A stretch of DNA of 64,000 bases from Parcubacteria group bacterium (GCA_041675165.1 JBAYUI010000001.1:6901-70900); one strand, 5' to 3'; shown: positions 218 through 36,089, numbered from the stretch's first letter. The notes: a model not told the origin generated them from the sequence alone. Translations and numbers: made by a program.

Positions 218-1651
218 TTATTTGTTCACATCAATTAAGAATTTCTTCAAATTGTAACGGCCGATGATGGTGGGGTAGGTCAGATGCGAGCGGTCGACCA
301 AGGTGACTCTAGTGGTGAACAGCGTGTTATTGAGTTGAATAGAAATGTTGATCATTGGCCGATAGGTGAAGCCATGGGAAGAGCGGACGGGAATAGTGGA
401 GGCGATGTCGGGTACGTTTTTGAAGATGTCCCAACGTTGTTCCTTGGTCAGATTTTTGAGTTCATCATAAGGACGTTTCAGTTTCTCGAATTCTTCCACG
501 GTTGCTTCAAAGCCTAATTGTTTGGCTAACTCATCATCAATGGATGACCAGTCGGCTCCTGTGTCGATTTTGGCTTCCACCTCGACAAATTTTTCATCTT
601 TGCCGATCAGCTTCACTTTTTCCACGGTGCCTATAACTTTCTTGCCGGAAATTTCTTCCAGTTCCTCTTCGATTTCTCCGCCGAATAAGTCTTTGCCGAG
701 GCGGATGCCGCGTTCCAATGTTTTGATCTTCAGATCGGAAATTTTTTGCAGCCGTTTTTTGAGGCCCGCCAAATTGGCGATCTGGATGGAGAGTCCTGGG
801 CGGGCGTTGAGCTCCACAATCACCGGGCCACGTTCTTTATCAATAGCAATGTCCGCCCCTAAAAAGCCTAGGCCGGAAATCTCTTGGGCGCGTACGGCCA
901 TTTTCAAAATATCATTCCAATAAGGAATTTTTATTCCGGAGAGCAAAAGCCTGGTGTCTGGAGCATATTCCACCATAGTGCTTTTGCCTTGGACGGCACT
1001 GGTGGTGGTGCCGGTGGCCATATCGATGCCGACGCCGATAGCGCCTTGTTGCAAATTGGCTTTGCCGCCGGACAACTTGGTCGGCAGGCGGAGCATGGCC
1101 ATTACGGGTACTTTATTGAAAATGATGATGCGGATGTCGGGGATGCCTTTGAAAGAATAGGGTTTGAAAAGTTTCAAAAGTTGCAAACGTTCTTCAAAAA
1201 AAGCGATGTCAGGCGTGCCGGACAAAGAGTATGATCCGTCTAAAATATTTCGGATGTGATTTTTCAGATCGTCAACAGTGATGAGGGAGCGGTCCGCTTT
1301 GATCCAGGCGTCTTCACGATTTTTTTTCTTGCCATAGACCACGACGATACCTTCACCGCCAAACCCGCGATTGGGTTTCAGGGCAAAACTGCCGGGCAAT
1401 GTCTGCCAGTCAAAATTTTCCAACTCATCGATCGTTTTTATCTTAGTGATGAGATGCGGCACGGGCAGATCATTTTTAGCTAGCACTTTTTTGCTGAGTA
1501 ACTTGTTGTCGGCTAATTTTTTGGCGCGCGACAAATTGAAAGGCCGGATATATTCCAGATTCCGCGAATTCATCCCCAAGATCTGACGGCTGATCTTGCG
1601 ATAAGCATTAATTTTTCGGAAAAAATCAAACATAATTAAATCATAATGCAA
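218..1651 (-). CDS. RimK-like ATP-grasp ligase (alpha-L-glutamate ligase-related) fused to a C-terminal retropepsin-like domain (putative ATP-dependent zinc protease, DUF785-like)
   Basis: 477-aa ORF. The N-terminal two thirds shows ATP-grasp/RimK-like motifs (FALKPNRGFGGEGIVVV, GIDMATG, VIVELNARPGLSIQIANLAG). The C-terminal ~150 aa (KIDTGADWSSID...VRSSHGFTYRPMINISIQL..TTRVTLVDRSHLTYPTIIGRYNL) resembles the retropepsin-like domain usually associated with RimK. Confidence 0.65.
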   Translation of the reverse strand: MHYDLIMFDFFRKINAYRKISRQILGMNSRNLEYIRPFNLSRAKKLADNKLLSKKVLAKNDLPVPHLITKIKTIDELENFDWQTLPGSFALKPNRGFGGEGIVVVYGKKKNREDAWIKADRSLITVDDLKNHIRNILDGSYSLSGTPDIAFFEERLQLLKLFKPYSFKGIPDIRIIIFNKVPVMAMLRLPTKLSGGKANLQQGAIGVGIDMATGTTTSAVQGKSTMVEYAPDTRLLLSGIKIPYWNDILKMAVRAQEISGLGFLGADIAIDKERGPVIVELNARPGLSIQIANLAGLKKRLQKISDLKIKTLERGIRLGKDLFGGEIEEELEEISGKKVIGTVEKVKLIGKDEKFVEVEAKIDTGADWSSIDDELAKQLGFEATVEEFEKLKRPYDELKNLTKEQRWDIFKNVPDIASTIPVRSSHGFTYRPMINISIQLNNTLFTTRVTLVDRSHLTYPTIIGRYNLKKFLIDVNK

Positions 1652-1680
1652 ATGATGCGAATCTTATGCAAATACGCGAA

Positions 1681-2331
1681 TTAGAGGTGTTTTATAATTT
1701 CTTTGAAGCGCAGATATTCACTCAGGCGCAGCCCCGTCCATTTGCCGATAGCTACGTTGATGGGCACGGTAATAAGGATGAGCCAGGGCGCGCTGGCAAT
1801 GAGACGGATTAATGTTTCGGAACTGGCGATGAAAAAACCGATGATGGAAATGAACAGCGTTTCAGTGGCCAGCAAGATGGCCACGCGCGTGCCTTTTTCT
1901 ATTTGCACGGCCACAAATTTTTCGACGATAGTGATCATAATGAGAATAGGGAAAATGGACACCGCGGCCAGACCCGTGCGGTGTAGATCGCCGCCTAAGG
2001 TCAAAACGCCCAAAGTTAAAATGGCTACGGCCGTGAGCATAATAGCCACGCGTGGCAGATAGAGCAGGCGAAAAGGTTTCAAAATGAAACGCATCAGCAT
2101 CCCAGTCACAATGACTGAAATGAAAATGGTGATGCCATATTTCAAGCCATTGGTGGCGAGAAATGCGAAGGTCACGATGAGTGGGGTGTAGATGCCAAAG
2201 GCCTTCACGCCCACCACTTGGCGGAGGAGCGCGATGAAAGTGGCGATGATTGGAAGCATTAAAAGTAGAATAACTGTTTCAAAAGGCAAACCTTTTTGGA
2301 TGAAGAAAAGAATGATCGGGCTGATGTGCAT
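1681..2331 (-). CDS. Polytopic (about 7 TM) membrane protein, likely the partner of the RimK-like ligase
   Basis: 216-aa highly hydrophobic ORF, same strand and immediately upstream of the ATP-grasp gene (30-nt gap). Its position matches the conserved 7TM component of RimK-like/transglutaminase/7TM cassettes. No transglutaminase-like domain is present. Confidence 0.5.
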   Translation of the reverse strand: MHISPIILFFIQKGLPFETVILLLMLPIIATFIALLRQVVGVKAFGIYTPLIVTFAFLATNGLKYGITIFISVIVTGMLMRFILKPFRLLYLPRVAIMLTAVAILTLGVLTLGGDLHRTGLAAVSIFPILIMITIVEKFVAVQIEKGTRVAILLATETLFISIIGFFIASSETLIRLIASAPWLILITVPINVAIGKWTGLRLSEYLRFKEIIKHL

Positions 2332-2377
2332 AAAGTTAAGTTAAAAGTTAATAAAGTTAGAAAGTTTGTAAAGTTTA

Positions 2378-2866
2378 TTAGTAATGGAAAATATTCATTT
2401 TGCGACTATTGAGGTGACAGAGGGCAATGGCCAAGGCATCCGCCGTGTCATCCGGCTTGGGCAGGGTGGCAAGCTTCATAATATTTTTGGTCATTTCTTG
2501 GATTTGATTTTTGTCCGCCCGCCCGTAACCCGTCAGTGCCTGCTTGACTTGGAGCGGCGTGTAACCACACACCTTAACACCTTTTTCACGCAATGTCAAG
2601 AGAATCGCGCCTCGCGCTTGAGCCACTTGGATGACGGTTTTTTTGTTCTTGAAGAAAAAAAGTTCTTCAATGGCCGCTTCCTGCGGGGCATATTTATCAA
2701 TGATTTTTTTCAGGTCTTGCGAAATTTCCAAAATCCGCTCATCATCCGATTTCTCTTTCTCCGTGCTGATGTGGCCATAGGCCAGCGGGACAAATTCACA
2801 ATTCTTCTCCGTCACAATCGCCCAACCCGTCGTGGCCGTCCCGGGATCGATGCCGAGCACTTTCAT
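2378..2866 (-). CDS. ruvC: Crossover junction endodeoxyribonuclease RuvC
   Basis: MKVLGIDPGTATTGWAIV... is a classic RuvC N-terminus, with a conserved acidic core. The ORF track extends to 2902; the internal Met at 2866 fits the family better. Confidence 0.85.
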   Translation of the reverse strand: MKVLGIDPGTATTGWAIVTEKNCEFVPLAYGHISTEKEKSDDERILEISQDLKKIIDKYAPQEAAIEELFFFKNKKTVIQVAQARGAILLTLREKGVKVCGYTPLQVKQALTGYGRADKNQIQEMTKNIMKLATLPKPDDTADALAIALCHLNSRKMNIFHY

Positions 2867-2964
2867 GCTGTCATTATTTGGTTGGGTAATATTTTTTTTC
2901 ATGCGGTTCTATATACATTATACTCCGAAAGGATGAGTTTAGATAATTTTTTTCAAATAAGAAA

Positions 2965-3768
2965 TCATTTTTCCCAAGTGGTGGGCAGATCATATTTGCC
3001 TTCCAGGTTTTTCCAAGTCAGCTCCACTATTTCTTTTATAGCTAGGGCAAACTTGGGAGATTCGATGATAAGCGTTTCGACGCTTTCAATGAGGCAAATG
3101 CGCACAAATTGATTGTCGCAAGATTCGATGGAAACTTTGGCGCTATAGATTTCCGGCGGCAAAAATTTGGCTTGGATGGATTTCAGTCCATCACCAAAGA
3201 ATTTTTCAAAGGGTTTCAATTGAGGTGTGTCGACAGTTATGCCGCGAACACGCGTGTTGTGAGCTTCTTTGTATTCATTCCATTCCAGGAATACTTGCGT
3301 GACAGCCGGAGAAGCATCTTCGTTGGAGGTGAAAAATCCAACAATTTCTTTTCCATATAAATCTTTCTGTCTATATTTGTAGGCTTGGCGCAAGCCTTCA
3401 ACGCCTTCGAAATACAGGATACTGGGTTTGTTAGTAGTGTTCTTTTGATAGGAGCGTAACTCGGGCAAGATTTTTTTAGCGGCCGAAAGGCGATCTTCTT
3501 GCTCCTCAATGAACGTATCTGGAGTTTTGGCGATGTATAGCTTCTTTTCTTCTCCTGGGATATGCACGATAAGACCTTTTTTGACCAGTTCCTCGGCGAT
3601 AATATAGGCAGTAGGGCGCTTGATGCCGGATTTGATGGCAATTTGATAGGGAGTGGCAGATCCAAGCTGAAGCAGGGCCAAATAGACCAGAACTTCTTTT
3701 TCGGACAAGCCTAAATTTTTTAGCGGTTCAATGAGATGGTTCATAGGAAGAGGAAAGTGGTTATACAT
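2965..3768 (-). CDS. TrmB-family transcriptional regulator (paralog 1)
   Basis: N-terminal wHTH region LGLSEKEVLVYLALLQLGSATPYQIAIKSGIKRPTAYIIAEELVKKGLI is typical of TrmB-like regulators, with a C-terminal effector-type domain. It is divergent from the small-ORF cassette locus. Confidence 0.65.
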   Translation of the reverse strand: MYNHFPLPMNHLIEPLKNLGLSEKEVLVYLALLQLGSATPYQIAIKSGIKRPTAYIIAEELVKKGLIVHIPGEEKKLYIAKTPDTFIEEQEDRLSAAKKILPELRSYQKNTTNKPSILYFEGVEGLRQAYKYRQKDLYGKEIVGFFTSNEDASPAVTQVFLEWNEYKEAHNTRVRGITVDTPQLKPFEKFFGDGLKSIQAKFLPPEIYSAKVSIESCDNQFVRICLIESVETLIIESPKFALAIKEIVELTWKNLEGKYDLPTTWEK

Positions 3769-3794
3769 GGATTATAGCAAGAATAGATTGAATA

Positions 3795-3809
3795 GTCAAT
3801 AAAGTTGAC
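3795..3809. promoter_or_regulatory. Palindrome GTCAAtaaagTTGAC in the TrmB1/cassette divergent intergenic region; candidate operator
   Basis: A perfect 5-bp inverted repeat read from the sequence. Related (A)TTGTCAA...TTGACAAT palindromes lie upstream of the other two TrmB paralogs. Confidence 0.3.
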
Positions 3810-3901
3810 GAATAAATATGTATATTAGTAGATTGTGGCTAATAAAAAGCAATAAATGGATAAAATCAGGGTATGTTTAGATAATAAAGTAGACATAGAT
3901 A

Positions 3902-3930
3902 TTGACTAATTTCCCAAAACGCGCTATACT
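3902..3930 (+). promoter_or_regulatory. Sigma70-like promoter P1 (TTGACT-N17-gcgcTATACT) driving the small-ORF cassette array
   Basis: -35 TTGACT at 3902-3907, 17-nt spacer, -10 TATACT at 3925-3930. Architecture and GCGCTATACT box are near-identical to the promoter at 48569-48597. The downstream leader motif GATGAGTTACGAAAAAAAGA is also shared with locus 2. Confidence 0.55.
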
Positions 3931-4038
3931 GTGTAGTCAAGATGAGTTACGAAAAAAAGACAGTCATCCTGACAACAGTTCATTACAATTTATCACCCCG
4001 CACAATCAAGGGTTCAAAATTTGGAAAGGATAAGTGTT

Positions 4039-4209
4039 ATGAAAAGCGTAACAAAAGTAGATTGGAAAGATAAAAGATTCCACATAGGATGGAGAAGTGA
4101 GGCGGAGTGGTATGCGTATTGTATAAAAATGGGGAAATTGACGATTGATGATGAGAATCTTGATCGCTACCCCCTGCGTCGTGCACTACTATCTGTCAAA
4201 GGACGCTGA
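4039..4209 (+). CDS. Cassette A: small hypothetical protein (56 aa)
   Basis: ATG at 4039 preceded by the conserved GGAAAGGA RBS-bearing header. The track start at 4021 is a TTG inside the header. No recognisable domain. Confidence 0.4.
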   Translation: MKSVTKVDWKDKRFHIGWRSEAEWYAYCIKMGKLTIDDENLDRYPLRRALLSVKGR

Positions 4210-4291
4210 AAAAGCGACGGCGCTGAGTCATCAGCGTAGCAACAGAAGTGAGGCCAATGAGGGTATGCTCATCGCATCACAAATGACAATC

Positions 4292-4424
4292 GGGCAAGGA
4301 GATTTAAAAAATCTTTCTTGCCCTCTCAATTAAGATTTTGAAATAAATTCGAAGTCTTATAGGGAAAAGTTCTTTGTAAAATATTGCCCAAGCAAGGGCT
4401 CAAAATTTGGAAAGGAGAAAGGCC
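4292..4424 (+). repeat. Inter-cassette unit 1: hairpin GGGCAAGGAGAT-N7-ATCTTTCTTGCCC + TCTCAATTAAG + conserved spacer + CAAGGGCTCAAAATTTGGAAAGGAGA header
   Basis: A ~133-bp unit with homologous copies at 5223-5347 and 5903-6004. A degenerate copy lies at 4997-5080, and header-only copies at 3990-4038 and 4861-4882. Confidence 0.7.
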
Positions 4425-4853
4425 ATGAGAAATATTTTTATATTACTCAAAGATTTCGGTGGAATGCTTAGAGTTGTCAACGCATCTTATAAATCATTCA
4501 ACATCAAGCAGAACAATGGTTCGTTGATAGAAATGGAATGTTTAGAAAGCGATTGGGCAATAGAATGGCACGAGCAGTATAAAAGTCGTGAGCCTGGATA
4601 TAATTTTGGTACTGGATCTGAGCTAAGGGCAAAATTATTTCTTTTGCGAAGCATGAATAGCGAAATTCCCCATAATGGTGGATACAGTATGACAAAACTG
4701 TACACCGGCCCCTCAGTGAAGATTGTTATGAATGAAGTGGAATATAGACTGGAGAAAAATTCCTTTTCATTCTGTTATCTGGGTGGGGATACGTATTATG
4801 GGGGAACAAGCATTTTCCCTCTGGCTGAATATTTGAAAAAATATCTCAAATAA
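4425..4853 (+). CDS. Cassette B: hypothetical protein (142 aa)
   Basis: ATG at 4425 directly after the conserved header/RBS (GGAAAGGAGAAAGGCC). No recognisable domain. The track start at 4407 is a TTG inside the header. Confidence 0.45.
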   Translation: MRNIFILLKDFGGMLRVVNASYKSFNIKQNNGSLIEMECLESDWAIEWHEQYKSREPGYNFGTGSELRAKLFLLRSMNSEIPHNGGYSMTKLYTGPSVKIVMNEVEYRLEKNSFSFCYLGGDTYYGGTSIFPLAEYLKKYLK

Positions 4854-4882
4854 AACAGTCCCAAGGGTTACAGGGTAAGTTG

Positions 4883-4996
4883 ATGAAAATAACCTGTGAC
4901 TTTGTGGAAACATTTCACGACGGTAAGGTCAACGCCGATAATGACTATCATCCGACTGATTCACGACACGGATCAAGAAATTGGGAGAAAGACTAG
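4883..4996 (+). CDS. Cassette C: candidate 37-aa peptide behind a truncated header copy
   Basis: The truncated header CAAGGGTTACAGGGTAAGTTG is followed by ATG at 4883, ORF MKITCDFVETFHDGKVNADNDYHPTDSRHGSRNWEKD, stop at 4994-4996. Below the ORF-track size cutoff. Confidence 0.25.
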   Translation: MKITCDFVETFHDGKVNADNDYHPTDSRHGSRNWEKD

Positions 4997-5222
4997 AAAA
5001 CTAATCTTTCTCCTCTCAATTGGAATTTTAAAATTAATTTTTTGAAGTTTCATAGAGACGAAATTCTTTAAGATAGATTTTATTAGCGGGTATTTTTGTT
5101 CCACCAGGGGGGATAGATAGGGCTTTGGCTATAATCCAATGACAATTTCTGTTTTGTGGAACAGAAATACCTATTCTTGGTCCCCTGTCTATGATGACAA
5201 AGGAGGTGATAAATAAGTCTGC

Positions 5223-5347
5223 GGGCAAGAAGATCAACAAATCTTCTTGCCCTCTCAATTAAGGTTTTAAAATTATTCTGAAATCTTATAGGGAAGTGTT
5301 CTTTATAAAATATCGCCCGATCAATGGCTCAAAATTTGGAAAGGAGA
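5223..5347 (+). repeat. Inter-cassette unit 3: perfect hairpin GGGCAAGAAGAT-caacaa-ATCTTCTTGCCC + TCTCAATTAAG + spacer + header
   Basis: 12-bp perfect stem at 5223-5252, then sequence about 85% identical to unit 1 through the RBS. Confidence 0.7.
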
Positions 5348-5896
5348 ATGGCTATGCGTGACATGGAAACTCTTATTGCGTTGTCTAATGGCGGCTTGAA
5401 TTTCAAAATCGGAATGGTTGAATACCCCAAAGAAGTTGACCCATCTTTTCCGAAGATGTTTCTCTATCGAGAAACATCCTATGGCAGAGAAGGTGTGCTA
5501 TGCTGGGTTGCTACACCAGAAAATACTTGTTGCAAAGATAATGTGCTCAATATCGAGAGTCTTTCTTTTGTAAAAGTATGTGGAGAAGCATTAAAATGTA
5601 TTGGTACTTCTTTGATTGAAACAGAGAAGTTAGAGGCGAGGCTTCTTCAGGAAATTCCTTTTGGATCTGCTGCTGGGAGAGATAAGCAGGATCATGATGA
5701 ATATATGGAAATGATCCACGATGCTCTAAATGGATTCTGCCAGCAGGTTGAAAAAGTTTTCTGGGAGAATGTTTATAAGCTCTCTTGCGAGATGAATATT
5801 CAAGAATTGAATATGGTTAGGTGTCATCGTTGGATAAAGATTAAAATTGATAAAGAAATGCAGAATGGAAATCCTGCATTTCAGTGGTATTTGTAA
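5348..5896 (+). CDS. Cassette E: hypothetical Cys-containing protein (about 182 aa)
   Basis: ATG at 5348/5354 after GGAAAGGAGA. The track start at 5324 lies inside the conserved header, where a G>T change creates an ATG. No recognisable domain. Confidence 0.45.
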   Translation: MAMRDMETLIALSNGGLNFKIGMVEYPKEVDPSFPKMFLYRETSYGREGVLCWVATPENTCCKDNVLNIESLSFVKVCGEALKCIGTSLIETEKLEARLLQEIPFGSAAGRDKQDHDEYMEMIHDALNGFCQQVEKVFWENVYKLSCEMNIQELNMVRCHRWIKIKIDKEMQNGNPAFQWYL

Positions 5897-5902
5897 GTGT
5901 AT

Positions 5903-6004
5903 GGGCAAGGAGATGATTCAATCTTCTTGCCCCTTCAATCAAGATTGCAAAAATGTTTTGTGATTTTGTAGAAGAAAAATTGTTCTTTAAATCCAAAAGG
6001 AGAG
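5903..6004 (+). repeat. Inter-cassette unit 4: hairpin GGGCAAGGAGAT-gattca-ATCTTCTTGCCCC + TTCAATCAAG + shortened spacer
   Basis: Homologous to units 1 and 3 but lacks the CAAGGGCTCAAAATTTGG block. It ends in the RBS AAAAGGAGAGATGG. Confidence 0.6.
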
Positions 6005-6286
6005 ATGGATATGAAAAAGATAATCGGTGGATTCGTGTCTGTTATTATTGTGCCTATGTTCCTTGTTTTTTTATGCCAAATTTTTGTGTATGATATGGCG
6101 CTGGAAGCTGTCTGGCCATTTCAAAACAAGGAGTTGGGCGAGTATGTACAAACGCTCCTAGTCAGTAAGGGCATTCCAGTAATATATTTGTATATTGCTG
6201 GAAGAATAGCGGGCGTAGGTTTGCTCGCCATGCTGACAGCCAGCGTCCTTTCTTTCAGGAAAGGAAAAGAGTGCGGAAAAGCTTAA
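6005..6286 (+). CDS. Cassette F: small two-TM membrane protein (93 aa)
   Basis: Two hydrophobic helices, VSVIIVPMFLVFLCQIFV and IAGRIAGVGLLAMLTASVL. It is the last ORF of the array before a strong terminator. Confidence 0.45.
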   Translation: MDMKKIIGGFVSVIIVPMFLVFLCQIFVYDMALEAVWPFQNKELGEYVQTLLVSKGIPVIYLYIAGRIAGVGLLAMLTASVLSFRKGKECGKA

Positions 6287-6304
6287 AAACTTTTCTTGTT
6301 CAAC

Positions 6305-6342
6305 CCCGGCCGTGGAATATTTTTCCTCGGCCGGTTTTTGTT
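6305..6342 (+). terminator. Rho-independent terminator closing the cassette array
   Basis: CCGGCCG-tggaatatttttcct-CGGCCGG followed by TTTTTGTT. Confidence 0.6.
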
Positions 6343-6549
6343 ATCTTTACGAACTACCCGCCTCGACTCGCGGAGACGATCCGCTCGTCGACGCGAGGCG
6401 GGCGGATTAGTACGAATGTACGAATAAAAAAGTACGCGTCATTATTTGTGTAATATATAAATACAATGTGGGATTAATATTGACCGGTGAATATTCACCC
6501 CCTGATAGTGACCTCAGGGTTAAGTGGATGCGCGAATAAAACTTTTGCG

Positions 6550-6578
6550 TTGACTAGTGCTTCTTTTTTAGATAGTAT
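6550..6578 (+). promoter_or_regulatory. Candidate promoter TTGACT-N17-TAGTAT upstream of the DUF4325-like gene
   Basis: Read directly from the sequence. The ATG at 6593 follows with a short, AT-rich leader. Confidence 0.3.
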
Positions 6579-6592
6579 AAAGACTATAAAAT

Positions 6593-6874
6593 ATGCGTAT
6601 TGAAATTAAAAAATTTGGTGAAATTTTAATCTCTCGCCCGGCTGGTAGGGAGGCATACTTAGCAATGTCTGCTTATATTATCAAAGAATTTAACGAAGAT
6701 GAGGTTATTGAAATAGATTTTTCCGGAGTCAAAGTGTTAACTCCTGCCTGGGCGGATGAAGTGATAACGCCACTCGCGCAAAAATTCAAAAGTGTGAAAT
6801 TGCTCAATACGGAAAATTCCTCGGTGCAAGCTACGCTGAAAACTCTGCGGGAATATTCTGATTTGAAGATATAG
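6593..6874 (+). CDS. STAS-like small protein (DUF4325-like)
   Basis: 93 aa. The pattern MRIEIKKFGEILISRPAGREAY...EIDFSGVKVLTPAWADEV matches what I recall of the DUF4325 STAS-like family. Confidence 0.45.
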   Translation: MRIEIKKFGEILISRPAGREAYLAMSAYIIKEFNEDEVIEIDFSGVKVLTPAWADEVITPLAQKFKSVKLLNTENSSVQATLKTLREYSDLKI

Positions 6875-6882
6875 CAGACCTT

Positions 6883-6920
6883 AAAAACAGCGTAGCCTAG
6901 GCGCTATGCTGTTTTTGTTT
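6883..6920 (+). terminator. Rho-independent terminator
   Basis: Imperfect 15-bp stem AAAAACAGCGTAGCC/GGCGCTATGCTGTTTTT followed by a T-run. Confidence 0.5.
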
Positions 6921-6932
6921 AGCTGATATTCT

Positions 6933-6975
6933 TTCCTAAAGCCGAGCTTTAGGAAGATTAGCTTTAGGAAGATTA
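6933..6975. repeat. REP-like hairpin TTCCTAAAGC-cga-GCTTTAGGAA with a tandemly duplicated 3' arm (GCTTTAGGAAGATTA x2); also present at 35598-35622
   Basis: Exact 10-bp arms at both sites. Here it sits between convergent genes (the DUF4325-like gene on + and yebC on -). Confidence 0.5.
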
Positions 6976-7689
6976 TAAATTATCGAAAATCTCATCCACA
7001 TCATCCAGTTCGTCCAAAACTTCTAAGAGTTTTTCGTAAGCTTCTTTGGTGGCAGGATCGATTTCGGCGATGGTTTTGGGCAGATAGGACAGATTAGCCT
7101 CGGCGATTTTTTGGCCGGAGGCTTTCAACTTGTCTTGCACCTTTTGCAGCTCGGTCGGCTCGGTGAAGATAATGAATGCGCCTTCTTCGGTTTTCATATC
7201 TTTCGCACCAGCGTCGATGGCGACCATTTCTAGTTCTTCAAGATTGCTGTTTTCGTCAGTTTCGATGATGATGGCGCCGACTGGGTCAAAGTTCCACATG
7301 GATGAGCCGGCCTCGCCGAATTTGCCGCCGTTTTTGGTGAGAACGGTTTTCACTTCGCCGAGCGTGCGGTTTTTCTTGTCGGTGGTGGCTTTCACTAGCA
7401 TCATGACATTGCCTGGGCCTTTGGCTTCATAGATAACTTCTTCCATCTTGTCGCCTTTCAGTTCTCCGCTTCCGCGTTTCACCGCGCGATCAATGTTGGC
7501 CTTGGGCATGTTATAGGAAAGTGCTTTGTCGATGGCCGCGCGCAACTGAAAATTGGTGTCCGGATTGCCGCCGCCAGCTTGCGCCGCAATGACGATCGGT
7601 TTGGCGAGAACAGTGAAAATCTTGGCGCGCTTGGCGTCATTCACGCCCTTTCTTTGCTTGATTCCAGCCCAATGTGAGTGTCCTGACAT
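6973..7689 (-). CDS. yebC: YebC/PmpR-family DNA-binding regulatory protein
   Basis: MSGHSHWAGIKQRKG... is the canonical YebC N-terminus. The track ORF extends to 7767, but the internal Met at 7689 matches the family start. Confidence 0.85.
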   Translation of the reverse strand: MSGHSHWAGIKQRKGVNDAKRAKIFTVLAKPIVIAAQAGGGNPDTNFQLRAAIDKALSYNMPKANIDRAVKRGSGELKGDKMEEVIYEAKGPGNVMMLVKATTDKKNRTLGEVKTVLTKNGGKFGEAGSSMWNFDPVGAIIIETDENSNLEELEMVAIDAGAKDMKTEEGAFIIFTEPTELQKVQDKLKASGQKIAEANLSYLPKTIAEIDPATKEAYEKLLEVLDELDDVDEIFDNL

Positions 7690-7801
7690 AAAAGATATTG
7701 CTAAATGGTTAAATAGACATACTACTAACGGCCTATTCAGTCTAACAGTTAAAAAAGAGAAGTTCAAGGCGGATATGATCAGGCGGAAAGAAGGTTATTT
7801 T

Positions 7802-9871
7802 TCATATCACATTCAAAACCCGATTGATCCCGGAATTTATTTTCAACCAAAAAGTTTCGGCGAAAGTTATGACCCAATGTTTTTGGGGAATAGCAGAAGT
7901 GAAAGTGTAATAATTTCCATCATAAATAACTATTCTGGCACCGAGGACGTGGGGAGTGGCATTGTTTATAGCCGCGGGAATTTCAAGGGCGGAACTGAAA
8001 GTGGCCAGTTCGATCTGATAGTTTTGTTTTTTCTGCCAGGCCGGATCAAGGGAATATTTTCCCAAATCAGCCGCGGAAATTGTAGGTGCTGGTGTGAATA
8101 TGGCTGGTGGTGCGTCTTGCTTATTTTCGGCGGACGCAAGGCTCGCTCCTTCGGCAGTGGCCGGTTCGGACCATTCCCAATTGCTGCCTTCTTTTTTCTG
8201 GTAAAGTGTTTCTTCTTGGATTGACTTCTTCCCGTGGTCATATTGAATTTTTTGCACGGCCTTGCCAGATGGATCGCGCAGCTCAAGCTTGTCCTTGGCA
8301 TTGGTCAGGGTGAAAGCGCAAATGTCATGGCTTAATTTTTTAGTTTTGTCGGCCTTGATGAAGAAATCTTCGCGGATCGGATGGTTCACGAGATTGTCCC
8401 AGCCGGTGGCAACAGACCAGCCTTTCAAATTCATTTTCTTTTTGGAATTGTTTTGGATTTCAATCCATTCATTTTCAGTGTCACTGCCTTTCGGGTTGGG
8501 GGAGATTTTCATGATCCAGATTTTTGGTGCCACATATTTTTTCACCTCGACCGTGAAAGCATAAAGCGCGTCTTCACCGTTGCCGGTGATTTTGAGACTG
8601 GCGGCATAGTGGCCAGTTTTTTCATACTTATGCTTGGTTTTTTGCAGGTAACTTTTATGCCCGTCGCCGAAATCCCAAGTGAATTTTTGGGCATCGCGGC
8701 CGGCTTTGACTTCGAAATGGGCATAAATATTTTTGTACATCTCATCATCTTTTGAAATTTTTCCATGGAGGATCTTGTCGAATAGGTTTTCCTTTCCGGG
8801 TGTAGTGAGTGAAGTCCAGCGCCAAGCGGTGCCGTCGAAAGCGTAGGCATGACCAGATTTGGGTGAGGCATAGGCGCGGCTGTCTACTAGGGCTTTACTC
8901 GCGTCATACAAGAAAACCGTATCGCCTTTGGAATCGTTGTTGAGAGAAAATGTGCCATAGAAAACATCAAGATTGTCATTTTTGTCCAGACTGGAGATTT
9001 TTTTGCAGCTGCCTTTTTCGCCCTTGTCATTTTCTGTCTTATCCTTCAAACACCACTTCGAAAAATCAATCTCTTGTCCGCTGGAATTTTCAATTTCCAC
9101 AAATTCTTTTTCGCCCGCCGCAGTCAGGGGCGCGGGATAAATCTCGTTGATTTTTACCTGATCAACATAGTAAGATTTTTTAGAAGTGTCGCTGTCGGGG
9201 TCATTGTCAGGGTCTGTGTCGCCATCTCCGCTGGCGCAATCTTTTTCATCGGAATTTTTTTGGCCGGGAGTGCCGCCCAAGACGCAGCTTTCATGCCAAC
9301 CATTTTTTTCGAAATCATTCCGTTCGATGCTTTTCTTATCGGCGGGATTTTTGATTGCGTTTTTGTCAAAATATGCATTGGCTCCAAAACCTAAAAAATC
9401 TAGAACGTTTTCTTTTTTGTTTCCTGATGTGCTGATATAGACCGCGCCATCGGCCACGAGAGAATTTCCAACGGTTGAATAAGTTGCGTCAACAGCGGTA
9501 TCGGTGGTGTTATCGGCATAATCCTTGGAAGATATGAGGAAATAGCCTTTGGCAGGAACGGTTTCATGGATAAAGGTCAGGGTTTTGGAACTGTCGGAGT
9601 TGGCAGAATTTACGAGATGCAATTTCAAAGGCAAGGATTTTAGATTGATATCGGCATCGGTTGGATTGTAAATTTCCAGGAACTCTTCCGCGGCGGAGTT
9701 TCCTCTGGGTAAAACTTCAGAAAGTAATAAGTTATTCTGGACATCATCCGCTCGACATTCTTTTTCCCAATAAAAAACTGCCAACAGAAAAATCGGCAGT
9801 AAAACAAGGAGCCTAAAAACAAAAAACAAACCTTTATTTTTGTCCGCCTCTACGGCGGATAAAGTTCTCAC
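7802..9871 (-). CDS. Secreted/anchored protein with three lamin-tail (LTD) domains and a PKD domain
   Basis: N-terminal hydrophobic anchor. LTD-like segments (LLLSEVLPRGNSAAEEFLEIYNP, VKINEIYPAP..EKEFVEIEN, IWIMKISPNPKGSDTENEWIEIQN). PKD-like FTWDFGDGHKS...GHYAASLKITG. Confidence 0.65.
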   Translation of the reverse strand: MRTLSAVEADKNKGLFFVFRLLVLLPIFLLAVFYWEKECRADDVQNNLLLSEVLPRGNSAAEEFLEIYNPTDADINLKSLPLKLHLVNSANSDSSKTLTFIHETVPAKGYFLISSKDYADNTTDTAVDATYSTVGNSLVADGAVYISTSGNKKENVLDFLGFGANAYFDKNAIKNPADKKSIERNDFEKNGWHESCVLGGTPGQKNSDEKDCASGDGDTDPDNDPDSDTSKKSYYVDQVKINEIYPAPLTAAGEKEFVEIENSSGQEIDFSKWCLKDKTENDKGEKGSCKKISSLDKNDNLDVFYGTFSLNNDSKGDTVFLYDASKALVDSRAYASPKSGHAYAFDGTAWRWTSLTTPGKENLFDKILHGKISKDDEMYKNIYAHFEVKAGRDAQKFTWDFGDGHKSYLQKTKHKYEKTGHYAASLKITGNGEDALYAFTVEVKKYVAPKIWIMKISPNPKGSDTENEWIEIQNNSKKKMNLKGWSVATGWDNLVNHPIREDFFIKADKTKKLSHDICAFTLTNAKDKLELRDPSGKAVQKIQYDHGKKSIQEETLYQKKEGSNWEWSEPATAEGASLASAENKQDAPPAIFTPAPTISAADLGKYSLDPAWQKKQNYQIELATFSSALEIPAAINNATPHVLGARIVIYDGNYYTFTSAIPQKHWVITFAETFWLKINSGINRVLNVI

Positions 9872-9923
9872 CCGATTTTATTTTATAAAAAAGAAGCGGA
9901 CAAGATCCGTTTCAAAATTTTTT

Positions 9924-10520
9924 CTATGCCGCGTCACCATCATGGTGGATTTTTTTGCTGAGCATATCTGTAAACTCCACATCCTCGGTGTGTTCAAATT
10001 TCTTCTGCAGCTTCATGATCAGGTCCTTGACGGCATAGGGGTCGGGGATGTTTCTGAAGAGAAATTTTTCCGTTTCAGCGGCCGTCTGCACCTCGATGTT
10101 GCCATAATTGAGAAAGGTCGGAATGACACCTTTGACGTCGGTAGCGACGTCCTGGATCTTTTCCAGACGAAGCTCACTGGTCTGTCTGGCGAAGAGCCCC
10201 TTTTGTTCGATATTGACGATGCGTTGGCTGGTAATGATCCAGACGTCGAAATAATAATCGATCCAGATGATGAAAAAGGTGATCCAGATGAAGATGAAAA
10301 ATAAATTGCGTAAAAAGGCAAAAAGCATCTGGAAAGATGGGTCGCCAAAATTATTGTAAAAAACAGCAGTCAATCCATAGGAGCCGAAAAGCAAGACGAG
10401 CATGATGAGGATGATGAAAAATTGGCTCAGGATGTCGAACCAATGACGGTGCAAGACGAGCAGGATCTGTTCGTCCGAGCGTTGCCCATCAAAATGATAT
10501 TTGTTGAAAGAATTTTCCAT
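9924..10520 (-). CDS. Membrane protein with a bacterial PH (bPH_2, YdbS/YdbT-like) domain
   Basis: From the internal Met: MENSFNKYHFDGQRSDEQILLVLHRHW, then two TM helices, then ...IITSQRIVNIEQKGLFARQTSELRLEKIQDV. The first 82 codons of the track ORF look non-coding. Confidence 0.5.
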   Translation of the reverse strand: MENSFNKYHFDGQRSDEQILLVLHRHWFDILSQFFIILIMLVLLFGSYGLTAVFYNNFGDPSFQMLFAFLRNLFFIFIWITFFIIWIDYYFDVWIITSQRIVNIEQKGLFARQTSELRLEKIQDVATDVKGVIPTFLNYGNIEVQTAAETEKFLFRNIPDPYAVKDLIMKLQKKFEHTEDVEFTDMLSKKIHHDGDAA

Positions 10521-10525
10521 AATGT

Positions 10526-10750
10526 TTAGCCGATGAAAAATTGTGAAAATATAGCAGTCCATTTGACGGAGAAAAATAGCAGCATATTGGAAAAAAGGAG
10601 AAGAGCGGAGATTATGATGAAGAGTGGTAACAAAATCTTGTTCAAGCTGGCATTGATGGAATATTTGGCCAAGTGGTAGACGATAAAGGCGTACAGAAAA
10701 ACAAAGGTAAGGACGATGATGGCATAAAGAGTGAGGATGAGGTAGAACAT
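10526..10750 (-). CDS. Small hydrophobic protein (two TM), hypothetical
   Basis: 74-aa ORF, strongly hydrophobic, in a different frame from the 5' extension of the bPH gene. Confidence 0.25.
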   Translation of the reverse strand: MFYLILTLYAIIVLTFVFLYAFIVYHLAKYSINASLNKILLPLFIIISALLLFSNMLLFFSVKWTAIFSQFFIG

Positions 10751-10817
10751 AACGAGTAAATTTCAAATTCTAAATTACAAATTTCAAATAAATTTTAAAA
10801 TAAAAAATGTCAAATTT

Positions 10818-11825
10818 TTAAAACAAACTTCCTTCTTTTTTGTCGTATGCTATACCCAAATGGTTGTAGGCGGCTTCTGTGGCCATGCGTCCGCGCGGGG
10901 TGCGAGTGAGGAAACCGATCTGGATGAGGTAAGGTTCGTAGACATCCTCAATAGTTTTGATCTCTTCGGAAGTGGCCGCGGCAATCGTGCCGAGACCGAC
11001 TGGTCCGCCGCCGAATTTCTCAATGATAGTGGTGAGAATATGCTTGTCGGCCGGTTCGAGGCCCAGCGGGTCGACGTCGATCATTTCCAACGCTTCAAGG
11101 GCGACTGCTTCATTAATTATATCATGATTTTTTATCTGCGAAAAATCTCGGACACGTTTCAGCAGTCGATTGGCGACGCGTGGCGTGGCGCGCGCGCAAG
11201 TGGAAATTTTTTGGAGGCCCGAGTCATCGATGTTCACATCCAAGATACGTCCCGAGCGTTCCAGAATTTTTTTGATTTCGTCATTGGTGTAAAATTCCAA
11301 GCGATGGATGGCGCCGAAGCGGTTTCGGAGAGGATTGGAAAGAGAGCCAAGCTTGGTGGTCGCACCGATCAGGGTGAAATGTGGCAGATCCAATTGGATG
11401 GTGCGCGCCGAAGGGCCTTTGCCAATGATGATATCCAGTTTATAGTCTTCCATAGCCGGGTACAAAATTTCCTCAATAGATTTATTCAGGCGATGGATTT
11501 CGTCGATAAACAAAATATCTCCGTCCTGCAGGTTGGTGAGGATGGAACCGAAATCACCCACGCGCTCAATGGCCGGGCCGGAAGTGGTTTTGATATTAAC
11601 GTTGAGTTCTTTGGCGATGATGTTGGCCAAGGTGGTTTTGCCGAGACCCGCCGGGCCATACAAAAGCACGTGCTCAATCGCTTCTTTCCTGAATTTGGCC
11701 GCTTGGATCAGAATATCCAGGTTTTTTTTGACTTTTTCTTGGCCGACATATTCGCCGAAAGTTTGCGGACGAAGGGTGATGTCAAAAGAAGCGTCTTCGG
11801 GTTGTTCGATGGAAGTGGTGATCAT
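10818..11825 (-). CDS. ruvB: Holliday junction branch-migration helicase RuvB
   Basis: [16 protein letters not shown]...[18 protein letters not shown] (Walker A) and the conserved RuvB core and C-terminal winged helix. Confidence 0.9.
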
Positions 11826-20677: not shown

Positions 20678-23600
20678 TTGGTATCTCTTTTCATTTTTAG
20701 AATGCTGCAAAACAAAAAAACAAAAAATAAGGAAAAAGAGGTTGAAAAACCGCTTAAAAAATCAATAAAAAAAGCTCTCATTGGAAAAAAGGGGTATTTT
20801 GCTGTCCAAAGAAGAAGGGGAGTGAAAAAAAATGATATTGCTAAAGCTAAAATAATTGAAAAAATAGAAGAATACGACCCTGAAATACTGAAAACGGTCA
20901 AATCTTGGAATTTTTCGGAAAAAAGAAAGGACGAGTTTTTCATAAGACAGACCCTTGAAGAATATGTTTCACTTGACCATACGGACAAGAAAGACTTGGG
21001 GAAAGCTTATTTTTGGAATTTATTCTTAGGAAAATTTGTTTTATCAATAAAACAAATTTTCAGACAAGTTTTTAAAGCGGGATTTAAGTTTTCTTATAGG
21101 GCAATATCCGTTTTGGCTATTGCTTTTTTGGTGTATGGAATTTCGCCGGCGGCTCTTTGCGCTCCCAAATCGGTCGCAATAACTACAAAGGCTGATTGGG
21201 ATCTGGGTCAGTTTTCCGGAGTGACTACACAGAATTCTGTCGATTCGATCCAGATGGAACCAAGTGGGACTTGGACAGCTCGAACTTGGGCATCACCAGA
21301 GGACACCATAGGCTTCGGGCATAGTTCTGTAATGGTGGGCGATTATCTCTATGTTTTCCGAGGTTATTCCGGAGATACTTTTTGGAGATATGATACTATC
21401 AAAAATACTTGGTCAACAATGGCGGGACTGCCACAACCGGCATTCTATGGGGCAGATATGACATATTTGGCCAGTACGGGAAAGATATATGCAATGTTCG
21501 GAGGCTATTCTCAAAAATTTTATAGCTATGATATAGATTCAAATTCTTGGACAAAACTGACTGATATGTTAGATACGCCATGGACAGGCGCGGCGATGGA
21601 AGGGAACGGAACGAGCATTTTTATTGTCAGGGGAAATGCCAGTACTGATTTTTGGGAATATGACACTGTTTCCAGTAGCTGGATAAATCGACCACCGATT
21701 ACGGCGGCTGTCGGAGCCGGGGCGGATATTGTGAATGGACAGGATGGAAATTTATATCTGGTCAGGGGATCTGGAACTCAAACTTTCTATCGGTATGATA
21801 TCGCTGGTCACAGATGGTACGCGACCGTGGCTCAACTCCCTTCGACTTGTGGCGCGGCGGCAAATGCAGCTTGCACTTTTGGAAACGAACAAAAAGGAGT
21901 CTATCGGAATGGAAAATTGTACTTTATGCGTTCTAATGGTACGCAAGATATGTTGCAATATGACATTTCTGGAAATGCTTGGACGGCTCTAACGACAGAT
22001 ATGACTCCTCAAGCGGTCAATTATGGTTCTTTGACTCTGAATACAAATGATAATTTAATATATGCCTTCAGAGCTAATGGCACGACTGATTTTTGGAAAT
22101 TCGATCCCGATGCGGCATCCGGACAAAAGTGGGTCGGACCAAAACAGGTGCAAACAACCGCAGGCGTCCTTTCTACTGTAGGCACAGGCAGTGATTTGGT
22201 TTGGAATCAGAATTATGGCGGAAATAACTACGTGTACGCTATCCAAGGCAGGGGAACGACGGGATTTTTTGTGTATAATGTAGCGAATAATTCTTGGACG
22301 ACCGGTACGGTACTTCCCATCTCTCCGAATAGTGATATGAAAGGAGCGATCAACCCGGCTAATGGAGCGCTTTATTATCCGCGTTCTGGATCGGCTAATA
22401 TCCTCATTTACAGCGGAGGCACTGCCGGTACTTGGGCCAATATGTCGCCGGCACCACCCATAGCACCGGCCGATGGAGCCAGTGTTGCTTTTCAAGGCAC
22501 CAATCTATATTATCGGCCCGGCAATGGAAGTCAGAATATTTATCGATACAATGGCACAAGTTGGTCAGCGGCAATCCCTATGGCAACTGTAGATAGCGGA
22601 ACGACCACGACTTATTATGCCAATACGGGAGGCAGAATGATTTCGGATGGAACTAATGTTTATGCAACACTGGGAGATGGTGAAACAACATTTTTGAAAT
22701 ATGACGGAAGTGCTTGGTTAACATTGTCCGCCACGCCATTCTCGCAATATTATGGGAGTGATATGACGTATGACAGCGTTAATTCAAAAATATATGCCTT
22801 AGCCGGATTATATAAGAATGAGACTTGGGAATATGACATAGCCACTGATGTTTGGAGAAGGTTGCCGAATAACCAGAAATATACTTTTGATAGGGGACCG
22901 TACAATGGTGCTTCGATCGAATATTCCGGCAATACCTCTTTATACGCAACTACAGGCCAAAGCCTTTCTGATATATGGAGTTATACCGTCTCAGCTACAA
23001 ATTTTCCAACTTCCGGAACTTACACTTATGCCAGTCAAATGATCGACCTCGGGCAAGTTTCCAGTGGTTCGGCATTCACTTTCAATGAGGAAAGGCCGGC
23101 CAATACTTCTACGAAGTACGAGCTGTGTACAAATGCGGACGGTGCGGCCTGTTCTTCTTGGCACAATGTAACGGACGGCGTGATCAGCGACCTAACCATT
23201 GGCAGGTATGTCTGGGTGAAAGTCACCTTATCTACGAGTGATGGGGCCAGCACTCCAACAGTGAATGATTATACCATTTCTTATGCTTCAAGCGATACCG
23301 TTCCTTCTTCGCCTACGACAATAGTGGCTAAATCTCAGCAAGTGGACGGGTCAGATATCGTAGCTGACACGGAATACGCATATGAGCACCCCTATTTTTC
23401 TTGGACAGCCGGAGCGGATAATGGCTCAGGAATAGATGGTTATTATGTCTATTGGGGAAAAAACAGCTCCGCGGATCCGGCAAGTGAAGGAAGTTACCAG
23501 GCAACTGGCCACTATACGGTCAACGAGGCGATGAATTATGATACTAGTCCGGTGCATCCCTACGGCACATATTATTTAATCGTGAAGGCTAAAGATAAGA

Positions 23601-26600
23601 ACGGGTTGGTATCAGACGCTTGGTCAGCTTTTACTTACAAATACAAAGGTGTTTCTCCGTCACAAGTATCGAGTAAAACATTACAAAGCGATTTCAATAA
23701 AGCGGGAGCCGACTTTGATGACGGGAAAATATCATACTCGGCTGTTGATGGATCAATGCGCCTGTCAAACACTTCCGGTTTTTGGAATCAGGCTCGATTA
23801 TCAGCTTCACCCTATTATACGCATATAGGGGGTCAGGCAGTGTTGGGGGGATGTAAGACGACTGGGCAATCCCAATTAAGTGGCAATCATTGCGTTTATA
23901 CATTTCAAGGAAACAATCAATTGGTTTTTATGCGGTATGAGATTGAAACGGATACATGGATAAATTCAACCGCTAATATAGCCGAGATAAAACCAGCCTT
24001 GTCAGCGGTTAATAATGGAGGAACGATGGTGGCTGGTCCGGAGGGTTATCTCTATGCGACCAAGGGTGTCACCACGCCAACTTTTTGGCGCTATGACATT
24101 GCTAACGCGGCATGGACACAAATTGATGATGCACCGAAAAATTTCGATTATGGTTCTGTCTTGACGTATGATGACAGTCGATATATCTATGCTATGCCAG
24201 GAAATGACGATGCGACATATCGATATGACACTTGTAACGGTCAAGATGGAAGTTGCAGTCCGCAATGGACCCAACTAACCAATGCCCAATTCGGGAACCC
24301 CAATACGGTTGACGGACAAAAGACCTACGAAGGAGCGGATGGTATTTATGACGGACGGAACAATATGTATGTGATGCAAGGCAACTATTATCCGTATATG
24401 GCTAAATATTCCATTGCTGACGACGAAGGGCGTGGAGAAGTGCATAATACTTGGACATCTCTTTCGGCCGCGCCCGTCGGTTTCTATAACGGAGGCAGTT
24501 TGTCTTTCGACGGGGATCATACAATCTATGCTTTAGCGGGAAATTCTCGTATGAAGTTTATGAAATATGACACCAACACCGACGCATGGTCATTCCTTCC
24601 GGACGCGCCTGCCACAATTTCATATGGAGCTTCTCTCGTTTTTCATAACGGCTATCTCTATGCCACTCGAGGGGGAACTTATACGACGTTCTATCGTTAT
24701 AATACGATTGATAACACGTGGGAGATTCCCAATCATAATTTTTTCGGCAATACGGATGTGACAGGGGCAGTTTATCTCCCTTATTCCAATGGAGCTTCAA
24801 TGGCGGATGACGGAGGCGGAAATATATATATATATAGAGGCGGATTCGATAATACTTTTGGACGATATAATTCTTCGACCGGTGTTTTTACCACCCTATC
24901 CAAGTTACCGATGGGTGCCGGCAACGGAGCGAATATTGTATATAATGGAACGGAGAATGCTATCTACTATGTTTCCGGCAATACCATAAGAACAAGACGG
25001 ACCGGGACGGATACGCAGAACCCATACTTTTTCAAATATGATATAACCAGTAATACTTGGTCACAAATAACCACCGATCGTCCTTTGGCTCAAATATGGC
25101 TGGGATCGTCAATGACCTATGACGGGTCTCAATATATCTATCTGACCCAGGGCAATGGTACATCCACTTGGTGGAAATATGATACGTTGGGGGCTGCCGG
25201 TTCAAGGTGGAGCGCTATGAGTACGGTGGGGAGTTGTTCGAGCGGTGACGGAAGTAAGATTTTGTATGTAAGTGGAACGATTTTCCGGACGCAAGGCGCA
25301 GGATCGACTACGAATTGTAAATTTTCTATTTCTAATGGAACGTGGTCAACATTGGGAGCCCTTTTCTTTGGTGCTAACTCCGGATCAAGTCTGGTAGATG
25401 GCAAGGACGGTTATATTTATTTGGCTCGCGGCGGCAATACTAATAGTTATTATCGTTATAACATTTCCCAAAGCGCTCCGGGGTCATGGGAAAATCTGAC
25501 CGGAGCCAATATTCCGGCTCAAGTGACTACGGGCGGTTGGGGAGTAAATTCTAACAATAGGAACTGGTTTACGTCCGGCGCGGGCGGAGGAATAACTTTT
25601 CCGGACGGATTGTATAGCTATATCGTCGGATCTAGTACGAATGCGACGGGTTTTATTAAGACCGGTACATATACTTCAGAACCGATTGATCTTACTCAGG
25701 CTTATAAATTTGCCAACTTGAGCGTCAGCTATATCTTGCCGATCAACACTGCGCTTGAAATCCAAACCAGAACTTCATCCAACGGGTCGACTTGGGGAGA
25801 TTGGACGGATGTTTCAGAAGATCATTCTTTGGGCGATTCTCATACTTTTTCCATAAATTCTTCCGTAAATGAATATATTCAGATAAGGATGATTTTCAGC
25901 TCTTCCGATCAAGTCTATTCTCCGCGCGTAGATGATTTTGCCATAAACTATTATCAAGATCTTTTCCCGCCTGACAATCCTACTGGTATTTCTGCTTACG
26001 ATACCAGTGTCAAAACCAATATTCTTTCTGACAATACTTGGCATAACTACACAGCTCCGTATTTCGAATGGCCGGTCGCTAACAGCGCGGGCGGAGCGGT
26101 TGACAATCAGGGCGGATCGGGCATCGCGGGCTATTATGTCTGTTTCGGGAATAATACTGATTGCGTGGATCCTTATGTGGACGGTAGTTTCCAGATGGGC
26201 AATAGTTTTGTCCCTACCGGTATGGTTTCCGGACAGGATTATCATTTGAGAATAAAGGCCGTGGATAATGCCGGTATGTTTTTGGGTACGAGTTTTGATG
26301 CCTTCACGTATCGATTCGATGATGTGGCTCCGACTAATCCCAGTGAGATTACAGCCGATCCGATAGGTTATTCTTCAGCAGACGCGTTTATTTTCACGTG
26401 GTCTAATGATGTCGGTGATGCTAATTCCGGCGTAGCCAAATTCCAATATCGCACAGGCGGAGATGCGGCAGACATATGGTATGATATTTCTGACCCATAT
26501 GCCGTATCGCAATCCGTCGCGCCATATCAGGCTAACAAGAACACTTTCTATTTGCGCGCGGTGGACAATGCCGGCAATGTTTCCGCTCCGATGACGATGG

Positions 26601-35666: not shown

Positions 35667-36017
35667 CTATCTAGGATATAACTCCTTGATTCTATCAGCT
35701 CCTTTATAGATTATATAAGGGATAGCTCCTCTATCGATTTCAAGCTCTTTGCTTAAAATATTATAAATAGCTATTTTATGCTCTTTTGTTTTTCCATTGG
35801 AGTAAAAATGGAAAGTTATACCTTCGTAAGTAATACTTATGAAAGTTATCCACTGGGGAAATTTCATGGATATGTTATTAATGCAGTGGTAGCAGTAGCA
35901 GATGATGTCTCCATGATCGGGAAAATTTTTGCTATAAGTACCCTTGGGTTCTCTGATTAACGATTTGCACTCAAAGCAGGTTTGGCCAATAATTTTTTTT
36001 GGTGAAATTTTTTCCAT
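35667..36017 (-). CDS. Small Cys-rich hypothetical protein (CxxC...CxCxxC)
   Basis: From the internal Met: MEKISPKKIIGQTCFECKSL...GDIICYCYHCINN... Possibly a zinc-binding module. The track ORF extends 19 codons upstream. Confidence 0.35.
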   Translation of the reverse strand: MEKISPKKIIGQTCFECKSLIREPKGTYSKNFPDHGDIICYCYHCINNISMKFPQWITFISITYEGITFHFYSNGKTKEHKIAIYNILSKELEIDRGAIPYIIYKGADRIKELYPR

Positions 36018-36089
36018 AGTTATTCTCCCTTGCGTTGTTGGTTGAGAGCTAGTTGTGAATAGGATAGTATTCAATATTTATTGCATCAT

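Follow-up and report, generated by a model that had tools for sequence, protein, structure and literature searches.

TrmB-family regulators at back-to-back promoters in a Parcubacteria group bacterium, with candidate paralog-specific operators overlapping -35 boxes

TrmBL1/Tgr of Thermococcales recognizes the TGM operator TATCAC-N5-GTGATA, which sits on core promoter elements, and some TrmB proteins autoregulate or have been proposed to do so (PMC4158304). Here this and other described systems are compared with three TrmB paralogs, T1 (2965-3768, minus strand), T2 (47558-48346, minus strand) and T3 (36313-37113, plus strand), and their control regions in a 64,000-nucleotide stretch from a Parcubacteria group bacterium (GCA_041675165.1, JBAYUI010000001.1:6901-70900; hereafter the window, with positions counted from its first letter). 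T1 shares with TrmBL1/Tgr the PF01978 winged helix-turn-helix (wHTH), a conserved recognition-helix Tyr and an inverted-repeat operator, a candidate in the case of T1, with a 5-nt spacer. TrmBL1/Tgr differs from the window proteins in having a sugar-binding effector domain (PF11495), in acting at TATA/BRE promoters rather than bacterial -35/-10 promoters and in reading another half-site. Scores of the window proteins against the NCBIfam TrmB, TrmBL1 and TrmBL2 equivalogs are only 16-30 bits where cut-offs are 500-650, the comparison with TrmBL1/Tgr standing at ~30 bits against 650. TrmBL2 (5bqt, 5bpd, 5box) is nearer, being both the best full-length structure match and the best sequence match among solved structures; like the window proteins it has ~260 amino acids (aa) and consists of a wHTH, a helix and a PLD-like domain with no sugar subdomain. 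TrmBL2 is described as chromatin-like, binding coding and intergenic DNA without a defined motif (PMC4158304). This contrasts with the precise, deeply conserved palindrome described below for T1, and identity between TrmBL2 and the window proteins is only 17-19%.

The arrangement also recalls MarR-type wHTH dimers and lambda cI/cro, in which the regulator is divergent from its target and a palindromic operator lies over a -35 box. The cI mRNA made from PRM is leaderless, as is predicted for regulator mRNA here. Unlike in those systems, the two promoters here are 80-108 bp apart and do not share operators, and MarR Pfam scores of the window TrmB proteins fall below cut-off. As a further difference from lambda, phage and integrase genes are not present near T1 and chromosomal synteny is conserved, and a prophage immunity region was rejected as an explanation on these grounds. 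Full-text searches found no literature on TrmB regulators or leaderless promoters in bacteria of the candidate phyla radiation (CPR).

The reading that we consider probable is that these TrmB paralogs are placed at back-to-back sigma-70-type promoters, with predicted operators that are specific to each paralog and overlap the -35 boxes; all control regions would then contain TTGAC because of that overlap. An earlier note on this DNA had proposed instead that one operator, with TTGAC(A) as its common half-site, serves all three control regions. The palindromes on which it drew are exactly where it placed them, GTCAAtaaagTTGAC at 3795-3809 and ATTGTCAA-N17-TTGACAAT at 36268-36300. Its third motif, ATTGTCAAcaa, exists at 48478-48488, ~16 nt from the position given (~48462), and is a single arm with no partner. 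The half-site itself does not hold up: TTGAC(A) is the sigma-70 -35 consensus, and each instance lies 17-18 nt upstream of a TAnnnT -10. Nor do the control regions share one operator, since T1 has a palindrome with a 5-nt spacer (N5), T3 a 33-bp composite and T2 a single TTGACA plus a GATGAA box, and the recognition helices of the three proteins differ.

All three proteins belong to the TrmB family by their PF01978 wHTH, which scores 57.5 bits in T1, 47.0 in T3 and 36.2 in T2 (Pfam cut-off 25.6). Homologue lengths set the true start of T1 at 3744, giving a protein of 259 aa at 2965-3744, where the open reading frame (ORF) as first called reaches 3768; likewise, T3 starts at 36328 rather than 36313 and encodes 261 aa (36328-37113), as does its 100% identical homologue P0121. 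T2 (47558-48346) encodes 262 aa and is 100% identical to P0241, also of 262 aa. Pairwise identity among the three is just 24-29%, and they are therefore old paralogs. The AlphaFold model of T1 (predicted local distance difference test 86) has a wHTH, a long helix (75-99) of the dimerization type and then an alpha/beta, PLD-like C-terminal domain; its best fold match is full-length TrmBL2 (5bqt/5bpd, E 2.6e-12), followed by TrmB. Pfam finds no match to the sugar-binding domain PF11495 in T1, T2 or T3. The window TrmB proteins are bacterial, TrmBL2-like in architecture and outside every characterized TrmB subfamily. Their recognition helices read KRPTAYII (T1), NRATLYHT (T3) and GRTVAYFH (T2); the Tyr is invariant and aligns with TrmBL2 Tyr50, and the Asp/Glu expected after it (Y50 of TrmB/TrmBL2) is replaced by I/V in T1, H in T3 and F in T2. 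A defence-system reading was dropped, as PADLOC and Pfam returned nothing for the cassette ORFs or the T3 partners and only weak wHTH Csa3/CasR matches for the TrmB proteins.

Promoters were sought upstream of gene starts with a consensus scan for a TTGACA-like -35 and a TAnnnT -10 separated by 16-18 nt, so that all starts are predictions only. The site predicted to drive T1 runs from 3799 to 3771 on the minus strand (TTGACT-17-(TG)TATAAT, 11/12 consensus matches with an extended -10), and a weak site (TTGACG-18-TAGATT, 9/12) to which no gene is assigned runs from 3805 to 3834 on the plus strand. T3 would be driven from 36293 to 36321 (TTGACA-17-TACGAT, plus strand), the small ORFs facing it from 36275 to 36247 (TTGACA-17-TACACT, minus strand) and T2 from 48485 to 48457 (TTGACA-17-(TG)TAAGAT, minus strand). 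Opposite T1 and T2 lie two cassette promoters on the plus strand: TAGAT-N7-TAGAC-N7-TTGACT-17-TATACT at 3878-3930 (-35 to -10, 3902-3930) and TTGAC-N8-TTGACG-17-TATACT at 48556-48597 (-35 to -10, 48569-48597). Across the window, 14 of 29 sigma-70-type sites scoring at least 10/12 fall in intergenic DNA, which is 12% of the sequence, and unrelated genes share the promoter type (for example, 17568 and, on the other strand, 45900, 52690 and 56581; minus and plus strands, respectively). As TTGAC(A) is the -35 hexamer, TTGAC alone is therefore no evidence of an operator. Pairs of the form GTCAA-Nk-TTGAC are expected ~0.075 times per spacing in the window, where six pairs (either arm order) occur over 26 spacings, so there is no overall enrichment within the window alone. 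Start codons lie 6-8 nt past the -10 in T3 (36316-36330 region) and in many T1 orthologues, for which leaderless mRNAs are likely on predicted starts.

On the window alone, back-to-back -35 boxes are the null explanation, and what stands above chance is the placement of the palindromes and their conservation across genomes. The null can be extended to a rival account in which the palindromes are no more than paired -35 boxes, kept since both promoters are needed, and no regulator binds them. It fully explains the T2 motif and both outer arms of the T3 palindrome.

The T1 region was compared across 80 loci with T1 relatives from species-representative genomes, within ~160 related loci overall. 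The candidate operator GTCAA-N5-TTGAC occupies 3795-3809; one arm (3795-3799) is the T1 -35 box and the other (3805-3809) is non-promoter. As (C/T)GTCAA-N5-TTGACTAT, it persists upstream of T1 orthologues although the intergenic flanks have diverged, being perfect in 32 of 43 orthologous loci and a single mismatch away from perfect in a further 5, even where protein identity falls to 42%. The related loci, 1.16 Mb in all, contain 46 perfect GTCAA-N5-TTGAC sites against 1.2 expected; ~42 of the 46 are found no more than 350 nt upstream of the anchoring TrmB gene, and another two precede operons whose last gene is TrmB. One N5 arm has a correctly spaced -10 in 47/47 sites, matching the T1 promoter arrangement, whereas the other is followed by a -10-like hexamer in 11/47, equal to the background of 22% that holds for TTGAC in general. 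Hence the second arm is no promoter element, yet it is invariant among proteins with 42-90% identity to T1, which argues against an explanation by promoters only. The N5 palindrome is, moreover, restricted to TrmB proteins with the recognition helix KRPT(A/T/V)Y(V/I)(I/V) and absent from other TrmB clades, and the centres of its half-sites are 10 bp apart, one helical turn, which suits a wHTH dimer. Scanned over the window, the T1 position weight matrix gives a single strong hit, at 3790 (31.8 bits; next best 14.6), and no convincing further site that could define a T1 regulon, those at 59815 and 3887 being within or near the shuffled range. On this comparative evidence, we conclude that the N5 palindrome is probably a real operator overlapping the T1 -35 box.

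The T3 region was compared across 80 metagenome loci, with a consensus built from 31 sequences: atTGTCAA.a.TTGTt.gACAa.TGTTGACAAa...CTGACAACAg..TA..aT. In these loci a start codon often comes 6-8 nt past the -10, as would be expected of a leaderless mRNA. In the window, the T3 control region (36247-36321) holds two divergent promoters, an inner palindrome TTGTTCAACAA (36279-36289) and a spacer box TTAACAACAG (36304-36313). The T3 operator candidate is a 33-bp composite in which back-to-back -35 boxes surround the inner TTGT-N3-ACAA, together with a CTGACAACA box in the promoter spacer. GTCAA-N17-TTGAC occurs at 30 sites against 0.4 expected in 0.34 Mb, and other spacings from 12 to 22 occur 0-1 times. 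The left arm is followed by a -10 in 18/33 sites against the 22% background, so it is often a divergent -35 box; this and the conservation of the divergent promoter are as expected if promoters alone are under selection. The inner TTGT-N3-ACAA and the CTGACAACA box, by contrast, are conserved (1.2-2.0 bits) without a promoter role, making them operator candidates. The T3-clade recognition helix is TK(L/I)NRAT(L/V)Y, and palindrome type tracks the recognition helix, a co-variation that needs of promoters do not predict. Taken with the T1 second arm, these features make an account without a bound regulator improbable. The T3 -10 (36316-36321) ends 6 nt before the ATG, and the T3 mRNA is probably leaderless.

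At T2, the promoter and an upstream GATGAA box (48499 to 48494) span 48457-48499 on the minus strand and include one TTGACA only; both the promoter (TTGACA-17-TGCTAAAAT) and the box are kept in 6/6 orthologue regions, and no second TTGAC arm is present at the T2 promoter or in those six regions. The 5' untranslated region (UTR) of T2 contains an insertion at 48361-48439 resembling a miniature inverted-repeat transposable element, with 25-nt inverted ends TGTCATTCCTGCGCAGGCAGGAATC and GATCCCCGCATGCGCAAGGATGACA; in some T1 and T2 orthologues, too, the 5' UTR is longer because of inserts of this kind.

The reading of the earlier note, that one dedicated TrmB family controls small-ORF cassettes through a common half-site TTGAC(A) read by all three paralogs, can draw on the presence of TTGAC or GTCAA in all conserved elements, on the recognition-helix Tyr shared by all three proteins and on the fact that the T1, T2 and further paralog types have in common both the kind of promoter opposite them (ATTATTGAC-17-TATACT) and the structured leader. 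We regard it as unlikely, because TTGAC, as the -35 consensus, invariably stands where a -35 box should; the arms differ in spacing and extras (N5, an N17 composite, a single arm); the recognition helices are not alike and change together with operator type; the T1 matrix has no site at the T2 or T3 regions; the T3 divergent transcript has no cassette-type leader; and the divergent cargo is heterogeneous. Least probable is that another protein (a global regulator, a nucleoid protein or a DNA-damage repressor, the last prompted by the position of T1 just upstream of ruvC) binds the palindromes and the TrmB genes are mere targets: T1-ruvC synteny in Moraniibacteriota speaks for it and a lineage-variable palindrome in the same intergenic region hints at additional factors, but the N5 palindrome stays with the KRPTxYVI clade also where ruvC is no neighbour (loci L028-L047 and more distant paralogs) and is unique in the 64-kb window, unlike the site of a global regulator. 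To our knowledge, the N5 palindrome is unlike any LexA box, and the LexA variant of this account was judged on distribution only.

If paralog-specific operators overlap the -35 boxes as we propose, a T1 dimer would bind the N5 palindrome via its wHTH and block RNA polymerase, making autorepression the most probable function as judged from the site; the C-terminal PLD-like domain would modulate binding on some signal. T1, or a higher oligomer, could also control the divergent transcript via TAGAC-N7-TTGAC at its -35, 105-108 bp (~10 helical turns) away, perhaps with looping of the DNA between. The TAGAC-N7-TTGAC-17-TATACT divergent promoter is kept in 30 T1 loci and begins 105-108 nt from the start of the palindrome. 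From -35 to -35, the two promoters of the T2 type are exactly 88 nt apart in 6/6 loci, and those of a further TrmB paralog type 80 nt apart in 2/2. Such tight promoter spacing across divergent hosts suggests a higher-order complex. T3 binding to the 33-bp composite would shut both promoters. The regulator would probably control the divergent transcript as well.

Several points weigh against this scheme. Elements are assigned to proteins by their co-occurrence, and transcription starts and leaderless mRNAs are predicted from consensus. The six T2 sequences did not suffice to define an operator. Activation of the class-II type could equally occur at the T1 site, whose centre lies near -39. TAGAC-N7-TTGAC is a direct rather than an inverted repeat and scores 10.3 bits with the T1 matrix, within the shuffled range, so that T1 control of the cassette promoter is weakly supported. 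Finally, TrmBL2, the closest structural relative, is a non-specific chromatin protein and as such predicts no specific operator.

Between the two T1-region promoters lies a central imperfect palindrome, GGCTAATAAAAAGC, at 3837-3850. In most T1-type loci its position is fixed, ~42-56 nt away from the T1 palindrome, and its arms vary by lineage yet stay complementary (GCTTTA..TAAAGC, CCTTG..CAAGG, GGCTA..TAGCC). A similar central element is found at 48518-48531 and in T2 orthologue regions.

Divergent pairing is a conserved theme of these TrmB paralogs and their promoters. As the earlier note observed, each of the three genes in the window is transcribed divergently from small hypothetical ORFs, and neither Pfam nor PADLOC matches these opposite-strand ORFs. 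Relatives show the pairing as well, in 6/6 T2 orthologue contexts and most T1 and T3 orthologues, and the palindromes are strongly enriched beside orthologous TrmB genes, so that the condition which the note had set for its refutation did not arise. Of 182 scorable TrmB genes in the loci compared, 123 (68%) have a divergent upstream neighbour, and in the window this holds for 3/3 TrmB genes against ~16/54 genes (30%) on a crude gene list. The further suggestion that the partners are dedicated small orphan cassettes was not borne out, as the partners are non-homologous in orthologous loci, where they include substrate-binding proteins, ParA-like ATPases, receiver domains and enzymes. In the six T2 orthologue contexts, of which one (P0296) lacked DNA, the divergent side holds either an array of small ORFs with no Pfam match or a receiver-domain gene. 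Facing T3 on the minus strand (35667-36179) are a 29-aa ORF (36090-36179) and a 117-aa Cys-rich ORF (35667-36020), neither with a Pfam match; in orthologous loci the T3-facing genes are heterogeneous, not mutually homologous and without the cassette-type leader. Several CPR loci (for example, L050 and L080) contain 3-5 TrmB paralogs within 12 kb. The further paralog type mentioned above (L164 5241-5996; L165 6305 onward) is faced, at 80 nt, by the same cassette-type divergent promoter, and its own -35 box carries two CTGTTGACAA repeats in tandem.

The T1- and T2-type divergent transcripts open with a conserved ~100-nt structured leader, which is repeated before successive ORFs and is confined, within the window, to the two cassette loci. 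Leader unit 1 (3932-4041, plus strand) comprises a 5' hairpin P1 (3936-3973), an AGTTC box, a second hairpin and a ribosome-binding site, and the unit is conserved in orthologous T1-type loci. In P1, 93% of cells are paired and covariation is 0.455 against 0.189 in shuffles (0/500 as high), a signal that collapses once the pairing partners are slid. RNAalifold recovers the first leader hairpin but none of the downstream ones, because two sub-types are mixed in the MAFFT alignment. The GTCAAG that immediately follows the cassette -10 forms the 5' arm of the leader hairpin rather than a further operator half-site. Searches with Rfam 15 of the window, of locus 1 at a relaxed E-value and of 11 related loci returned only tRNAs. 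Leader units were located with an nhmmer profile, a regular expression for promoter plus leader start having been too strict, and lie at 3932-4041, 4321-4427, 5250-5356, 5930-6013 and 48599-48705, with weak units at 48991-49062 and 5012-5068.

Cassette locus 1 (4039-6286, plus strand) consists of four Pfam-less ORFs (4039-4209, 4425-4853, 5354-5896 and 6011-6286), each of the three downstream ones preceded by a further leader copy and a GC-rich hairpin. These hairpins, GGGCAAGRAGAT...ATCTTCTTGCCC, have no T-run and stand directly 5' of the internal leader units (4291-4322, 5223-5252 and 5903-5932; degenerate at 4984-5013); they may serve in RNA processing or RNA stability, or act as joints for recombination. 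The inter-ORF repeats of the cassette loci are copies of the 5' leader and GC hairpin. Cassette locus 2 (48599-49456, plus strand) is made up of a leader (48599-48705), an ORF (48703-48927), a weak leader (48991-49062) and a second ORF (49061-49456). The ORFs that follow the leader differ completely between relatives, even at 90% T1 identity. An integron-like array would have a tyrosine-recombinase integrase beside it and attC-type recombination sites between its cassettes; among the called genes within 10 kb of T1, no integrase was found. A tentative and rather doubtful extension of these observations is a conserved module of Paceibacteria-type CPR bacteria, in which a TrmB-clade regulator and its palindromic operator are combined with a phase-locked divergent promoter and a structured ~100-nt leader repeated before each ORF, and which might act as a dedicated expression platform for rapidly exchanged lineage-specific ORFs; the cassettes would be integrase-free, the leader/hairpin units would serve as processing or recombination joints and each TrmB paralog would gate one island.

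In Moraniibacteriota, the synteny around T1 runs yebC, variable ORFs, T1, ruvC, 7TM and RimK-like. We note that T1 and the variable ORF island seem to split a yebC-ruvC neighbourhood at 218-11825 (yebC 6973-7767, ruvC 2378-2902 and ruvB 10818-11825, all minus strand), and that the island varies from ~2 to 5 kb among Moraniibacteriota. A DUF4325 (STAS-like) ORF at 6593-6874, downstream of the four cassette ORFs and the only ORF of locus 1 with a domain, lies at the end of that locus and has a promoter-like site of its own, TTGACT-17-TAGTAT at 6550-6578. Elsewhere, the window encodes a very large ORF of 2594 aa (20678-28462, plus strand).

A general caution follows for genomes with canonical sigma-70 promoters, in which divergent genes with a TTGAC palindrome between them should by default be taken to have two -35 boxes there; here, promoter could be told from operator by comparative evidence alone. 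Almost nothing is known of transcriptional regulation in CPR bacteria, and for these organisms the analysis makes several predictions open to testing in vitro: one TrmB clade, found across Moraniibacteriota, Paceibacterota and related groups, would have a 15-bp operator and another clade a composite one, regulator mRNAs would likely be leaderless, promoter pairs would keep fixed distances and an undescribed structured leader would stand ahead of fast-evolving ORFs.

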